From IMG/VR virus record IMGVR_UViG_3300001919_000214: a stretch of 5,172 nt of DNA; one strand, 5' to 3'. Shown here piece after piece: positions 1 to 4,251 of this stretch (position 1 is its first letter; the number at the start of each line of letters is the position of its first letter). This DNA comes from a virus. Taxonomy: Duplodnaviria; Heunggongvirae; Uroviricota; Caudoviricetes. A program made the translations under genes and the position numbers. The notes below the pieces were generated by a model. The model was not told the DNA's origin. It did not search any database and saw nothing but the letters and a program-made list of their open reading frames with translations.

Positions 1-933
1 GAATCCTGCCGGGATCTGGCTGTAGTCCACGTTGTCGTAACTGGCTTTGAAGTACGGGTCTTCACGTTTTTCTGTGTGCGTGCTGACGGACGGCGATAAG
101 CGCAGGGAAAGCTCATCCCATTTTTCCCGCAACTTCGACGGGCTGAGCACGTTACGGCACCAGAACGGATCACGGCTGACGCGGCTGTACATCTCGCAGA
201 TTTGTTTGTGAGTACGACCATCCTGCACACACATCAGGCGAATTTCGTTTGCCCAGGCTGTCCAGTTCGGTTCTTTGGGACGAACCACCTTGCCGTCACA
301 TTCGGCGGCTTGCTCGTACAGGGCGATGATTTTTTTCCAGAGCCACTGTGCGCAGGTCAAATCATCCTGCGTTCCCCACTGGCGCTTTTTAGGGCTGAAT
401 ACAACCGCATCAGGATGGCGAGTTAAAAAATACTGTTCAGCCGTCTGCGTGTCCGGTTGCGAAGCGTCCGGACGAGAAGGTTTTTTATCTGACGGATCAT
501 GTTTTGATTTTACTGACGGATCCCCGCCAGATTCTGACGGGTGAAAACCCGCTTTTTTGCCAGATTTCGACGCATCAAATTTTGACGGGTCAGATTTTGA
601 TGCGTCAGATTTTGACGGGTCAGAATCTGACAGTTGAGAAAATGCCGCTGCCTGAAGCTTCGCAACGTTAAGCTGATAAACATTCGACGCATTGCGGTTA
701 CCCTGGCGACGCGCCTTACGCGTTAACCAGCCTTCTGCTTCCAGCCGTGCGATAGCCGTTCTGACGGTACTCATCCCCGCGCCAATCTGACGGGCAATGG
801 TTTCAATTGATGGCCAGCACACACCTTCGTCATTACTGAAATCAGCCAGGCGGGCCATAATTGCCACGCTGGATAATTTCATGCCTGACGCAGCGCAACC
901 ATCCCATACATAGCCGGTTAATTTAGTGCTCAT
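1..933 (-). CDS. Phage replication initiation protein, lambda O-like; 5' part of the gene (311 codons), the 3' end lies beyond the window start
   Basis: Minus-strand frame open from ATG at 933-931 to position 1, checked codon by codon at the start and through 541-633. SD-like TAGAGG lies 6 nt upstream of the ATG. N-terminus (MSTKLTGYVWDGCAASGMKLSSVAIMARLADFSNDEGVCWPSIETIARQIGAGMSTVRTAIARLEAEGWL) looks like a winged-HTH initiator domain, followed by a Ser/Asp/Lys/Pro-rich repeat linker (SDSDPSKSDASKSDPSKFDASKSGKK) and a distinct C-terminal domain. Not in the ORF track because there is no in-window stop. Confidence 0.75.
   Translation of the reverse strand, partial: MSTKLTGYVWDGCAASGMKLSSVAIMARLADFSNDEGVCWPSIETIARQIGAGMSTVRTAIARLEAEGWLTRKARRQGNRNASNVYQLNVAKLQAAAFSQLSDSDPSKSDASKSDPSKFDASKSGKKAGFHPSESGGDPSVKSKHDPSDKKPSRPDASQPDTQTAEQYFLTRHPDAVVFSPKKRQWGTQDDLTCAQWLWKKIIALYEQAAECDGKVVRPKEPNWTAWANEIRLMCVQDGRTHKQICEMYSRVSRDPFWCRNVLSPSKLREKWDELSLRLSPSVSTHTEKREDPYFKASYDNVDYSQIPAGF
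485..642. repeat. Iteron-like tandem repeat array (about 15-bp period, TGACGGGTCAGATTT-like units) inside the initiator gene; putative origin of replication
   Basis: Consecutive 15-bp units at 553-567, 568-582, 583-597, 598-612, 613-627 and 628-642, plus TGACGG motifs at 490-495, 514-519 and 535-540. The same repeats encode the pentapeptide linker of the initiator, as lambda ori does within O. Confidence 0.55.
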
Positions 934-942
934 GACCGACCT

Positions 943-1281
943 CTATTTCCCTGAATTTACGACGAAACTGTTCGAGCGGGCTGAAGCACTCATGCTCATA
1001 GCCTTCACGGAGGTAGATAACCCGTTGTGTTTCCGGCTCCCAACGAATGACTCTGACGGGCACTCCGTAGTGATCTTTGAACCAGCGGTTAACTTGTCGC
1101 AAAGGACTGTCTCCTTCTGCCGGTTGAAATCACCCACAGCCCACTCTGCAAAGCTGTGGGTTACAATTTCCCTGTCACCTGGTACATTCACTGCATAGCA
1201 ATACTCCACCTTCGCTTTTCCACCCGGTACAGGAAGTGCAATCAGTTGCGAACGACGGTAGTGTGTTGTTAAACTGTTCAT
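943..1281 (-). CDS. Hypothetical small protein (112 aa), third gene of the cro operon; possibly YmfM-like (e14 prophage) by position and length only
   Basis: ORF with ATG at 1281 overlapping the upstream stop as ATGA (1278-1281); GGAG lies 10 nt upstream. Stop at 943-945 sits 9 nt before the initiator ATG. No recognisable motif in the translation. Confidence 0.55.
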
Positions 1282-1940
1282 GCGTTAGTTTCTCCACAAC
1301 CAGAAGCAATCGACGCCACGACGCCCGGAGCTGCACACTCGCGGGCGTTACTCTTTTCCGGCGCACAAAAAACACGAAATAACAGTGTTAAATGCTCCTG
1401 CCACTTCGCCATTACCTGGTAGCTGTTCTCTTCGATTTGCTCACGCTCAGCTTGGTCAATAACTCCATCAGCAGTTGCCTTGCGTAAGTACTGAGAATGC
1501 TTGCCAATCCATTCTATTGACTCCATCAGCCGCTGATTAATGTCACCATTGTCAATGTCATCAATGACCACCAGCGGCACAAACACCCCATTACTACGAC
1601 GGGCTATTGCATCTGTTACATGCCTGGTACCACTGGCATCCTGTAAAACCATGGCCCACTCAAGTGGAAAAATTTGATCCCCACCGCTACGCAGTCTGTT
1701 ATGCAATTGATCTTTTGCTGGGGTGATATCATCAGATTTATACAAACCAAGAATTTCTGCTGCTTCCTCATAGCCATGAGGTAAATCAGCAATCGTTCTT
1801 CGTATTGCTGCCACCAGCCATGCTGGTTGTTTATCAACTTTCCATTCAGGTTCTTTACCCACGGTTAATTCCTCATTTCTGTGGTTACGTTTACGCAGCT
1901 GAACCGCTAACTTTTGAATAGCACTCAGGTAATCCATCAT
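1278..1940 (-). CDS. Hypothetical regulatory protein in the CII/YdaT/YmfL position downstream of cro (221 aa from ATG 1940)
   Basis: Long minus-strand ORF with stop at 1278-1280. Start is ambiguous: ATG at 1973 (83-bp overlap with cro), ATG-ATG at 1940/1937 (47-bp overlap, no SD), or GTG at 1862 with GAGGAA 8 nt upstream (194 aa, no overlap). Functional call rests on synteny alone. Confidence 0.55.
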
Positions 1941-2154
1941 TTGGATTGGGGTAAATATCAGGACGCAGTTCATGAGGGGTCACGGACCAGTTTCCCAACT
2001 CACAAAGTTGTAAAACCCGTTCTGACGGGACTTGATTGTTAATTACCCAATTAGCGACGGATTGAGTGGACTTAAAACCAAAGCGACGGGCTACTTCAGA
2101 TAAAGATTTTCCCGCAGCCTTTACTGCTTTCTCTGTGTAGTTTTGAGATGACAT
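1891..2154 (-). CDS. cro: Cro-like HTH regulator (YdaS/Cro family), 87 aa
   Basis: ATG at 2154 with AGGAG 6 nt upstream. Translation contains SLSEVARRFGFKSTQSVANWVINNQVPSERVLQLCELGNWSVTPHELRPDIYP, the pattern I associate with YdaS-type Cro proteins. Divergent from the CI-like gene. Confidence 0.8.
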   Translation of the reverse strand: MSSQNYTEKAVKAAGKSLSEVARRFGFKSTQSVANWVINNQVPSERVLQLCELGNWSVTPHELRPDIYPNPNDGLPECYSKVSGSAA

Positions 2155-2306
2155 ACCTTTCTCCTCTGAAATTCAGAGGGATGATGCTACTTAAAATAGC
2201 AANNNNNNNNNNNNNNNNNNNNNNNNNNNNNNNNNNNNNNNNNNNNNNNNTGCAACTACTTAAAATAGAAATGACTAGTGTATGTGATGTGAGTAATCTT
2301 CTACCT
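2155..2306. promoter_or_regulatory. Divergent cI/cro switch region with candidate operators; 48 nt masked by N
   Basis: 17-bp perfect palindrome CCTCTGAA-A-TTCAGAGG at 2163-2179, adjacent to the cro SD. 13-bp direct repeat CTACTTAAAATAG at 2187-2199 and 2256-2268 flanks the N-run. Promoter hexamers cannot be read because of masking. Confidence 0.5.
2203..2250. other. Run of 48 N (masked or unsequenced) in the cI/cro intergenic region
   Basis: Directly visible. Confidence 1.
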
Positions 2307-3011
2307 ATGGTAGAAGAACAGAAGTATCCAGATTTCGCCAAGAGACTAAACGAGCTAATGACAAACAAGGGAATTTCTGTCACCCAACTCAAAAGTCTTG
2401 TGGGCGTTACATATGAAATGGCGCGGCGATACACAATCGGCGCTGCGAAGCCTCGTGCCTCTGTCATGAATAAACTTGCATTGGCTCTGGGGGTATCAGC
2501 TTCATATTTAGAATATGGTGTTGGCGAGAGAGAAGGATGTAAGGAAATGGCAAGCATCCCCAATCCAACGAAACCCGATGTATACAGGATAGAAGTTTTG
2601 GATCTTAGCGTTAGCGCAGGACCTGGGACCTATATGCTTTCAGACTATGTTGATGTGCTCTACGCCATTGAGTTCACAACAGAACATGCCCGTTCTCTTT
2701 TCGGCAACCGTTCTCAGAATGATATTAAGGTTATGACTGTAAATGGCGATAGTATGTCCCCTACACTCGTTTCCGGAGACCGACTGTTTGTCGACATTTC
2801 TGTTCGTCACTTCCAGACTGATGGAGTTTACTCTTTCGTTTACGGTAAGACTTTTCATGTCAAACGTCTTCAAATGCAAGGTGACAAGCTAGCCGTTCTT
2901 TCGGATAACCCCGCCTATGAGAAATGGTACATCGATGAAAAATCGCAGGATCAGCTTTATGTAATGGGCAAGGCGTTGATTCACGAATCTATAAAATACA
3001 ACCGATTGTAA
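2307..3011 (+). CDS. cI: CI-type prophage repressor: N-terminal XRE-family HTH plus C-terminal LexA/S24 autopeptidase domain (234 aa)
   Basis: HTH region FAKRLNELMTNKGISVTQLKSLVGVTYEMARRY; probable Ala-Gly cleavage site in VSAGPG; catalytic Ser in GDSMSPTL and Lys in FHVKRLQ, arranged as in LexA, lambda CI and P22 C2. Stop TAA at 3009-3011. In-frame ATG at 2271 is an alternative start; neither has a strong SD. Confidence 0.9.
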   Translation: MVEEQKYPDFAKRLNELMTNKGISVTQLKSLVGVTYEMARRYTIGAAKPRASVMNKLALALGVSASYLEYGVGEREGCKEMASIPNPTKPDVYRIEVLDLSVSAGPGTYMLSDYVDVLYAIEFTTEHARSLFGNRSQNDIKVMTVNGDSMSPTLVSGDRLFVDISVRHFQTDGVYSFVYGKTFHVKRLQMQGDKLAVLSDNPAYEKWYIDEKSQDQLYVMGKALIHESIKYNRL

Positions 3012-3055: not shown

Positions 3056-3454
3056 ATGAAATCTGAACTATTTCATAGCGAAGCAAATTCAGAAATTATC
3101 ACTGCAGATGAGTTTATTGATTTCATAAACTCTTTCAAAAAGCCTTTAATTTGCCAAATTTGCGGAAATCAATCATGGAGTGTAGTCGGTACTCTAGAAC
3201 TTGAAGTTGAAGACAATCAGCCAAAACATCACGTAATNNNNNNNNNNNNNNNNNNNNNNNNNNNNNNNNNNNNNNNNNNNNNNNNNNNNNNNNNNNNNNN
3301 NNNNNNNNNNNNNNNNNNNNTAAATTATCCTGGTGGTATGCCGCTGTTTCGAATCACCTGTGATCACTGTGCACATGTACTTCTTTTTTCTTATAAAAAA
3401 GCTAGATCATTGATCCAAAAAAGAAAAAATGAAAAAGAAGAGGATGGGAAATGA
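3056..3454 (+). CDS. Hypothetical small protein with two CxxC pairs (zinc-ribbon-like), 132 aa if continuous across the N-run
   Basis: ATG at 3056 with AGGA 8 nt upstream. CQICGN before the gap and CDHCAH after it lie in the same frame, supporting one protein. Basic C-terminal tail. Continuity across the 83 masked bases cannot be verified. AT-rich. Confidence 0.5.
   Translation: MKSELFHSEANSEIITADEFIDFINSFKKPLICQICGNQSWSVVGTLELEVEDNQPKHHVXXXXXXXXXXXXXXXXXXXXXXXXXXXXXNYPGGMPLFRITCDHCAHVLLFSYKKARSLIQKRKNEKEEDGK
3238..3320. other. Run of 83 N inside the putative zinc-ribbon gene
   Basis: Directly visible. Confidence 1.
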
Positions 3455-4083
3455 CGCGACCTTATCTCAGAGCAGTACCAAACTGTGGATCTGGTATTGA
3501 TAAGTGTGACCTTTACCCCAATGTTAAGAACAGGCTGCGCGTCGGTATAGAAGAAATGTATACTGATTTTATCGAATCCGCAGATGAAACTTACAAAACT
3601 GATGGGGGAAATAAAATGTCATCAGTTAGTCGAGAAGAAATTCAAGCACTTTTAGCTGCCAATAAAGCAGAAATGGAGTCCATTGCATCCTCTATTAGAG
3701 TTGAAATGGCTTTATCTCGCGAGAACACAAACGTTCAGCTAGCATCTCTAAATTCAGCCATCAATTCTATCTCTTCGAAAATCGAAGGCAAAATGGACAG
3801 TGTTGACGGGGATGTGAAGGCCATCAATGGTAGATTCGAAGGTATACAAGGCCAAATTACTGGAATAAATACAGCCATTAGTGGTATTCAATCTGGAATT
3901 TCTACCAGACTTGCTATTTTTGGAGTTATCATTGCGGTCATAGTTGCATTACCTAGCATAATTTCTGCTTTTAAAGATACTTCGCCAGTAGTTCAACCAG
4001 TTACACAACAATCAAGTGTTAAACATCTCAACCAAGAACCAATTACTCCACAAGTATTACCTCCGCAGGGAAAAGCAAACTAA
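3451..4083 (+). CDS. Hypothetical coiled-coil protein with a single C-terminal transmembrane helix (210 aa; alternative internal start at 3616 gives 155 aa)
   Basis: ATG at 3451 overlaps the upstream stop as ATGA, with GAGGA 6 nt upstream. Internal ATG at 3616 has GGGGGAA 5 nt upstream. Heptad-like Ile/Ser/Gly-rich segment, hydrophobic stretch LAIFGVIIAVIVALPSIISAF, then a Pro/Gln-rich tail. Architecture is reminiscent of XhlA-like or exclusion-type membrane proteins; this is low-confidence pattern matching. Confidence 0.65.
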   Translation: MTRPYLRAVPNCGSGIDKCDLYPNVKNRLRVGIEEMYTDFIESADETYKTDGGNKMSSVSREEIQALLAANKAEMESIASSIRVEMALSRENTNVQLASLNSAINSISSKIEGKMDSVDGDVKAINGRFEGIQGQITGINTAISGIQSGISTRLAIFGVIIAVIVALPSIISAFKDTSPVVQPVTQQSSVKHLNQEPITPQVLPPQGKAN

Positions 4084-4106
4084 ACCGGCTTTATGCCGGT
4101 TTTTTT
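4083..4106 (+). terminator. Rho-independent terminator closing the cI-linked operon
   Basis: Stem AACCGGC (4083-4089) pairs with GCCGGTT (4095-4101) around loop TTTAT; T-run continues to 4106, immediately after the stop at 4081-4083. Confidence 0.7.
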
Positions 4107-4198: not shown

Positions 4199-4251
4199 NN
4201 NNNNNNNNNNNNNNNNNNNNNNNNNNNNNNNNNNNNNNNNNNNNNNNNNNN
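4199..4251. other. Run of 53 N in the intergenic region after the terminator
   Basis: Directly visible. Confidence 1.

Follow-up and report, generated by a model that had tools for sequence, protein, structure and literature searches.

Which protein is responsible when a short prophage segment stops its host from dividing? We addressed this question for a stretch of viral DNA of 5,172 nucleotides (nt) from the IMG/VR record IMGVR_UViG_3300001919_000214 (Caudoviricetes), referred to here in its full length as the window. It holds an open reading frame (ORF) of 112 amino acids (aa) on the minus strand at positions 943 to 1281, which begins with ATG and is, judged by its sequence, an allele of ymfM, the gene of prophage e14 to which a cell division block has been ascribed. 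The gene is already known. However, a second ORF, which the initial annotation of the window had missed, lies in the -1 frame relative to ymfM at positions 923 to 1102 of the same strand, starts with TTG, and encodes a 59-aa protein of the family DUF4222. We conclude that ymfM is a dual-coding locus, and that its conserved partner DUF4222 has been overlooked in the experimental literature that we searched. Both frames are real, and the experiments so far, as they are described, cannot tell the two products apart.

The 112-aa ORF matches e14 YmfM

The initial annotation had guessed, from position and length, that the 112-aa ORF is the counterpart of YmfM in e14, and direct alignment bears this guess out. 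The predicted product is identical to E. coli K-12 YmfM (b1148) at 109 of 112 residues (97%, no gaps, BLASTP E = 4e-85), and it matches the PHROGs family phrog_1170 over its full length (E = 2.9e-70). Residues 1-91 are the same in the window and in K-12, and the three substitutions, V92A, A94V and S98N (window to K-12), all fall in the tail of the protein, which is unconstrained as described below. The DNA is ~98.5% identical, with 7 differences in 451 columns. The K-12 gene has the same length, the same ATGA coupling to the upstream gene ymfL and the same embedded DUF4222 ORF, whose product is 100% identical between the two. The e14 gene order also agrees with that of the window, namely, an S24 cI-like repressor, a cro-like gene, ymfL, ymfM and a replication gene, although the last of these is a fusion remnant (oweE/ymfN) in K-12 and an O-like initiator, intact up to the window edge, in our stretch. 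The segment has a match in 2651 of 5426 complete E. coli genomes, that is, in about half of them, and a scan of genome contigs with a YmfM profile returned 6 loci.

The structural features reported in the initial annotation are likewise present in the sequence. The stop codon TGA of ymfL overlaps the start codon ATG of ymfM in the motif ATGA at positions 1278 to 1281 (minus strand; the plus strand reads tcat), a signal of translational coupling, and a 4-nt overlap is also called in the loci L009, L018, L019, L020, L021 and L116. The ORF leads straight into the initiator gene: 9 nt separate its stop codon TAG (943-945) from the downstream ATG of the initiator (931-933). The perfect 9-bp pairing of 1132-1140 with 1153-1161 is there as well, and is discussed further below.

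In K-12, b1148 is annotated as 'cell division inhibitor YmfM' (NC_000913.3 1203822-1204160). Ansari et al. (bioRxiv 10.1101/2020.11.19.390815) have demonstrated that expression of the K-12 ymfM ORF from pBAD24 leads to ~57-µm filaments without Z rings, that this filamentation is independent of sulA, slmA and minCDE, and that a sulA ymfM double deletion shortens SOS-induced filaments; they equated ymfM with the long-sought sfiC. Resistance to SfiC has also been reported for the SulA-resistant ftsZ alleles (sfiB). Filamentation through loss of the FtsZ ring without SulA, SlmA or MinC has been demonstrated for the K-12 allele only, of which the window allele would be the counterpart. Accordingly, the proposal in the initial annotation that the ORF is a host-directed effector can be kept for the DNA segment, given that the K-12 allele filaments cells, but it is not yet assignable to the 112-aa polypeptide, because DUF4222 is encoded there too, in a different frame, and both ORFs are either contained in or deleted from the constructs published so far, as these are described.

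YmfM resembles SulA, lambda Kil, Rac KilR, Qin DicB and T7 Gp0.4, which are small (about 50-170 aa), mostly encoded by phages or prophages, and stop FtsZ-ring formation, and several small inhibitors of this set are stress-induced (reviewed in bioRxiv 10.1101/2020.11.19.390815). Neither in sequence nor in fold was YmfM found to be similar to a described family of FtsZ inhibitors (SulA, Kil, DicB and others). Unlike DicB, YmfM acts without SulA, SlmA or MinC, and its gene lies in the early-right operon between the CII-like and replication genes, rather than in the early-left kil region.

A DUF4222 gene is embedded in ymfM

The embedded ORF matches the Pfam model of DUF4222 (PF13973) with E = 8.6e-19 and 67.3 bits against a cut-off of 27, the match spanning residues 2-53 of the ORF and model positions 3-52 of 53, and in a near-identical locus it is annotated as the coding sequence WP_001250269.1 by the NCBI Prokaryotic Genome Annotation Pipeline (PGAP). 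A Shine-Dalgarno sequence AAGGAG, read directly from the sequence, lies at positions 1111 to 1116 (minus strand), 8 nt upstream of the TTG. In 11 of the 12 lineages that we examined, the start likewise falls on nt 179 of ymfM, and most of the 12 have a GGAG-type motif 4-11 nt upstream of the ATG, GTG or TTG. The stop codon TAA (923-925) overlaps the start of the initiator gene by 11 nt. The AlphaFold model of the product is a Tudor/SH3-like barrel with a predicted local distance difference test (pLDDT) score of 83. Taking these signals together with the substitution patterns given in the next section, DUF4222 is a real gene under purifying selection, and behaves as one that is translated and separately initiated.

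The databases treat this piece of DNA in different ways. PHROGs keeps three separate families, all of unknown function, namely, phrog_1170 for the 112-aa protein, phrog_20047 for the N-terminal 63 aa alone, and phrog_1343 for DUF4222. The curated record of MG1655 lists ymfM and omits DUF4222, whereas PGAP annotates DUF4222 in place of ymfM in the best-matching genomes, K-12 derivatives included: in derivatives of BW25113, EMG2 and C600 (H23, H25 and H28), DUF4222 is listed and ymfM is omitted.

The two halves of ymfM are under different constraints

To compare the frames, we aligned divergent YmfM homologues, down to ~45% identity, together with their DNA. Over the first ~58 codons the ymfM frame shows ratios of nonsynonymous to synonymous substitution (dN/dS) of 0-0.6, mostly 0.1-0.6. 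Beyond this point, where ymfM and DUF4222 overlap, the ratios part: the same DNA gives a dN/dS of 0.8-2.9 when read as YmfM, and 0.08-0.45 when read as DUF4222, apart from the saturated pair of the window with L013 (0.89) and one further pair that was not computable. Synonymous-site divergence (pS) is 0.37-0.85 in DUF4222 versus 0.05-0.58 in the N-terminal part. Since the synonymous sites of DUF4222 thus evolve at least as fast as those of the N-terminal part, the sequence of the tail adds no extra constraint.

The same division is seen at closer range. Between the window and K-12, the 5' half of ymfM has three substitutions, all silent in the ymfM frame, and the 3' half has three, all of which change YmfM and are all silent in DUF4222. 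In an unbiased population sample of 80 e14-type viral contigs retrieved via DUF4222 (51 haplotypes), 79 carry the two ORFs undamaged; the N-terminal part carries 19 synonymous versus 7 nonsynonymous polymorphisms, and 14 of the 15 polymorphisms in the overlap are silent in DUF4222 but change YmfM.

Accordingly, we divide YmfM into an N-terminal module (residues 1 to ~58, positions 1108 to 1281, minus strand) and a tail rich in serine, threonine and alanine (about residues 60-112, positions 943 to 1104, minus strand) that overprints DUF4222. Besides the alignments, the substitution ratios and the polymorphisms, the module is delimited by phrog_20047, by its AlphaFold model, and by stand-alone homologues of 59-77 aa, which are always found directly after a CII-like gene. 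Its family is narrow, with 56 cluster representatives among 1.84 billion. The AlphaFold model of residues ~10-66 has a beta-beta-beta-alpha-alpha arrangement of moderate confidence (pLDDT 62-80), and a fold search with YmfM found no significant neighbour in the PDB, while residues 68-112 are predicted to be disordered (pLDDT < 50). By these patterns of conservation, the module is a real protein under purifying selection. Residues 19-50 (window ~1132-1227) also match repeats of very long surface-type proteins (DUF7507 and Listeria-Bacteroides repeats; e.g. LPVGGGDVTYCYAVDNTGDVTL). We rejected homology to these proteins, and regard the match as probably a local resemblance between beta-hairpin motifs.

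The YmfM tail is kept free of stop codons

Although the amino acids of the tail are unconstrained, its reading frame is not closed. In 12 loci of about 6 lineages, the ymfM frame has 0 premature stops across the DUF4222 overlap, compared with ~2 stops expected from synonymous recoding of DUF4222, under which any one lineage would have an open frame with a probability of 3-14%; in the third frame, the same 12 loci have 2-7 stops, as expected. When we widened the sample to 160 DUF4222 loci, forming 43 clusters at 85% identity, all 14 clusters with an N-terminal YmfM module in frame A (the ymfM frame) were open to the natural ymfM stop, versus ~1 expected. The 24 clusters that lack an upstream module have a median of 2.5 stops in this frame, and up to 6. 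In 'tandem' clusters, 4 out of 5 are also open.

We then compared the use of purine-ending Val, Leu and Ile codons of DUF4222 at sites where they risk a stop in the ymfM frame with their use at non-risk sites, using Fisher's test. The in-frame lineages use them in 11 of 88 cases at risk sites versus 20 of 54 elsewhere (p = 0.0008), and 8 of these 11 are the natural ymfM stop itself. In lineages with stops there is no such avoidance (p = 0.54), while a group in which another ORF reads through DUF4222 (the Ash/Rha ORFs of Stx phages, the L199-type and the Yersinia-type) shows avoidance too (p = 0.024). The site-specific avoidance in the in-frame lineages argues that what is selected is that the region be translated throughout, and not the peptide of the tail. 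In the 80 contigs, 0 of 14 observed changes make a stop, a count of low power, as only 10 of the 95 possible changes synonymous in DUF4222 would do so.

The open frame in the tandem lineages L117, L142, L218, L225 and L251 suggested a third, hidden gene, which we rejected: pyrimidine-ending Val, Leu and Ile codons are used everywhere in these lineages (risk versus non-risk sites, p = 0.79), and thus the open frame is a by-product of codon bias.

Overprinted genes are well known in phages, for instance Rz/Rz1 of lambda and the overlapping genes of phiX174 and MS2. The ymfM/DUF4222 pair is like these textbook cases in having two open frames and an embedded gene with its own ribosome-binding site, but differs from them in that amino acids are constrained in the DUF4222 frame only, the YmfM tail being constrained only against stops. 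The tail therefore behaves as a passive extension, rather than as a second folded domain.

Which product inhibits division

The reading that we favour, and consider probable, is that of an e14-type ymfM with an embedded DUF4222 gene in the early-right operon, in which the N-terminal module is the inhibitor. The operon would run from the cro-like gene through the CII-like ymfL and ymfM with its embedded DUF4222 to the replication initiator, and would be kept off by the divergently transcribed cI-like S24 repressor. Upon DNA damage, the repressor presumably is inactivated by self-cleavage and the operon transcribed, as the biology of e14 suggests (bioRxiv 10.1101/2020.11.19.390815), which would amount to an SOS induction dependent on RecA but not on LexA. 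YmfM would then be translated by coupling to ymfL via the ATGA overlap, and DUF4222 would be initiated independently inside ymfM, at its TTG behind AAGGAG, in the -1 frame. The expressed segment would block FtsZ-ring assembly and thereby give filaments, as in the experiments with the K-12 allele. That this activity resides in the conserved ~58-residue module we hold to be somewhat more plausible than the contrary, and the narrow, accessory-gene distribution of the module fits a host-directed function. The tail frame would most plausibly be kept open so that ribosomes that started on ymfL or ymfM reach the initiator start; alternatively, the length of the tail may matter, or it may serve as a disordered extension. 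DUF4222 would be a separate, small Tudor/SH3-like binding protein, usually encoded immediately upstream of a replication gene.

Several observations weigh against this reading. No Pfam or NCBIfam model matches the 112-aa YmfM, and PGAP does not recognise it. Part of our lineage sample (L006-L021) was picked from long-ORF hits, the unbiased subset amounting to 6 clusters, all open. The coupling rationale for the open tail is weakened by the fact that the end of DUF4222 also overlaps the initiator start, so that the coupling could come from DUF4222. Moreover, the pBAD clone is described as carrying the ymfM 'open reading frame' (bioRxiv 10.1101/2020.11.19.390815), and such a clone would include the AAGGAG, the TTG and DUF4222 codons 1-53, that is, the whole Pfam domain. 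The library clone D1-8E, as described there, carries both ORFs, and the lambda-Red deletions remove both. In the literature searched we found no published experiment or paper that separates or links ymfM and DUF4222. Since the described clones and deletions carry or remove both ORFs, the product that blocks FtsZ-ring formation is not assignable from them.

The strongest competitor is that SfiC, the actual inhibitor of the FtsZ ring, is DUF4222, by itself or jointly with YmfM, and that the phenotype has been assigned to the wrong frame. We regard this as possible, but on the unlikely side. DUF4222 is better conserved and better folded than YmfM (pLDDT 83 versus 57; dN/dS 0.08-0.45), it has a strong Shine-Dalgarno sequence of its own, and small barrels of the Tudor/SH3-like type typically serve to bind proteins; moreover, a clone of the ymfM ORF only would contain the complete domain, as would D1-8E, and the ymfM deletions would lack it, as far as these are described. 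On the other hand, DUF4222 is a broad family whose members usually lie directly before initiator genes, even where the YmfM module is lacking, which fits a role in replication or early regulation. Examples of DUF4222 adjoining replication-initiator genes in phages that lack the module are Serratia BZS1, Citrobacter phiNP, Yersinia YeP3 and Elizabethkingia EKP1. The distribution of the module is instead narrow and patchy, as is typical of accessory host-directed genes. Furthermore, pBAD24 places the ymfM ATG behind the vector's own ribosome-binding site, so that frame A would give the strongly expressed product. DUF4222 thus seems more likely to serve replication or early gene control than cell division.

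We also considered whether the hairpin inside ymfM, in the part encoding the N-terminal module (1132 to 1161, minus strand; a perfect 9-bp stem with a 12-nt loop), is a functional RNA element, such as a site of mRNA stability or processing or a modulator of downstream initiation, rather than a by-product of coding; we find this doubtful. It is the only inverted repeat of at least 8 bp in positions 900-1320. We estimate, however, that chance would give about one perfect 9-bp repeat with a short loop in every 5-kb window, so that the repeat is unremarkable alone. As RNA its stem extends to 11 bp, and its 91-nt context folds with -31.4 kcal/mol (z = -2.5), a value reached by 2 of 200 shuffled sequences. 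A core of 5 bp stays paired in all 14 divergent lineages, and two pairs covary (CG/UA and GU/CG/AU), one of them through a synonymous change from GTG to GTA that makes up for a change from His to Tyr; the hairpin has a covariation score of 0.217, versus at most 0.107 for slid controls. The conservation of the core and the covariation give the hairpin modest support. However, both arms encode the most conserved residues (T-H-S and A-V-G) and would be expected to be conserved in any case, ~2-3 evolutionary events among related sequences account for the covariation, and conservation does not extend to the outer pairs. Since the hairpin also occurs in lineages that lack DUF4222 (L007 and L008), it has no tie to the initiation of DUF4222, and a neighbouring helix that would sequester the Shine-Dalgarno sequence and the start codon is not conserved. 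We rejected this helix, which comes from a single-sequence fold and would cover the AAGGAG and TTG of DUF4222, as it is paired in 59% and shows no covariation.

That the 112-aa ORF is no gene at all, with DUF4222 alone real and the long frame open by accident, would agree with the omission of ymfM by PGAP even in K-12 derivatives, with the lack of a Pfam or NCBIfam model, and with a tail that shows no amino-acid conservation. This reading was already disfavoured and we judge it very improbable, in view of the purifying selection on the N-terminal half in the ymfM frame, the stand-alone homologues of the module in the same position, the conserved ATGA coupling to ymfL, and a ymfM frame that stays open in all 14 lineage clusters, with stops avoided in a site-specific manner.

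Finally, a programmed -1 frameshift that fuses the module to DUF4222 into one ~118-aa protein, as suggested by the -1 frame of DUF4222, by database proteins with exactly such a fusion (P0030, P0052, P0059 and P0065) and by a conserved hairpin near the would-be frameshift region, was rejected as scarcely credible: the junctions of the fusion proteins all differ, as expected from sporadic indels or assembly errors; we found no X XXY YYZ slippery heptamer on reading the short stretch from the -1-frame stop (TGA, 27 nt before the TTG) to the DUF4222 start; the hairpin lies upstream of this permissive stretch, whereas a frameshift stimulator would lie downstream; the conserved Shine-Dalgarno sequence and start codon favour independent initiation; and in L117-type phages the module and DUF4222 stand in a different frame relation.

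Neighbouring genes in the window

The window carries the region for immunity and replication of a lambdoid prophage of e14-like type. Upstream of ymfM lies its partner ymfL (1278 to 1835, minus strand), which encodes a CII-like regulator matching Phage_CP76 and the NCBIfam equivalog model of YmfL, NF041471, with 181 bits (cut-off 90). The maximal ymfL ORF (231 aa, 1278-1973, minus strand) overlaps the cro-like gene by 83 nt, and the equivalent of the PGAP start is at 1835. The cro-like gene (1891 to 2154, minus strand), the first of the operon, matches YdaS_toxin (E = 4.6e-11) and HTH_3, and is called a 'transcriptional regulator' by PGAP. Divergent from it lies the gene of the cI-like repressor (2283 to 3011, plus strand), with a helix-turn-helix domain (HTH_3) and an S24 (LexA-like) self-cleavage domain (Peptidase_S24, E = 1.7e-16). 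Runs of N mask the window at 2203-2250, 3238-3320 and 4199-4251, the first of which covers the divergent promoter/operator region between the cro-like and cI-like genes. Within the operon we found no internal promoter and no convincing terminator.

Downstream of ymfM, the replication initiator gene (1 to 933, minus strand) encodes an O-like protein with an HTH_36 domain (phrog_391), whose C-terminus is cut at the window edge. It contains direct repeats of 15 nt (CAGATTTTGACGGGT-like), in ~5 copies at 15-nt spacing, within ~484-635 (minus strand), with further related copies at 484-542, and this array looks like origin iterons, as in the lambda ori inside the O gene. On the other side of the window, downstream of the repressor gene, a 210-aa ORF (3451-4083, plus strand) has weak matches of coiled-coil type (Baculo_PEP_C, under the cut-off) and a hydrophobic C-terminal segment (LAIFGVIIAVIVALPSIISAF), and is followed near 4083-4106 by a terminator-like GC hairpin with a T-run. 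This ORF may be a membrane-anchored moron or exclusion gene.

Related arrangements in other phages

In L117-type phages (L117 2501-2861), the YmfM module lies beside a separately called DUF4222 gene that is not overprinted and stands in a different frame relation, the module's own frame having 13 stops across DUF4222. Adjacent, separate genes for the module (~63-70 aa) and DUF4222 are also found in L133-L142, L218-L225 and L247-L253, and this may be the ancestral arrangement. In L116, which lacks DUF4222, the gene after the module is of the KilA-N type.

The SfV gene orf37 (L107 1052-1888), the ST64B gene sb41 (L106 1058-2215) and the 'Ant' gene of an Stx1a phage (L108 1184-2206) stand in the same frame relation to an embedded DUF4222 as ymfM does, and the SfV and ST64B ORFs begin with a divergent sequence like that of the YmfM module (MNSLTANNRLSQQ...). 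Unlike ymfM, however, all three ORFs run in-frame into a genuine Ash domain (PF10554, Phage_ASH), with no stop before the replication gene, and those of ST64B and the Stx1a phage have a Rha domain in addition. These through-reading ORFs are annotated as 'regulator'. The e14 YmfM may be an Ash-less version of an SfV/ST64B-like protein, or the long ORFs may be over-extended gene calls. In the IMG/VR contigs L199-L209 (locus ~540-960), a long frame-A ORF extends from 54-105 codons upstream of DUF4222 to ~26 codons past it; it is stop-free across DUF4222 and has no hit to the hidden Markov model of the YmfM module. It may be another, unrelated overprinting partner of DUF4222.

Implications

Only two SOS-associated division inhibitors of E. 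coli have been given names, and ymfM, which also features in studies of filamentation related to infection, is one of them. Two annotation traditions disagree on this DNA, the curated K-12 record naming ymfM and PGAP naming DUF4222, so that nearly every E. coli genome annotated by automatic means lacks an experimentally characterised gene. The tail of YmfM, free of stops but under no other constraint, shows cleanly how the translation of a region can be selected, and not the peptide made. Should DUF4222 cause the filamentation after all, or be required for it, a Tudor/SH3-like family that is widespread beside the replication genes of phages would join the inhibitors of the FtsZ ring as a new member, and K-12 would be annotated in the wrong frame. 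With both frames recognised, the assignment of the filamentation phenotype to one polypeptide becomes a simple experimental question.

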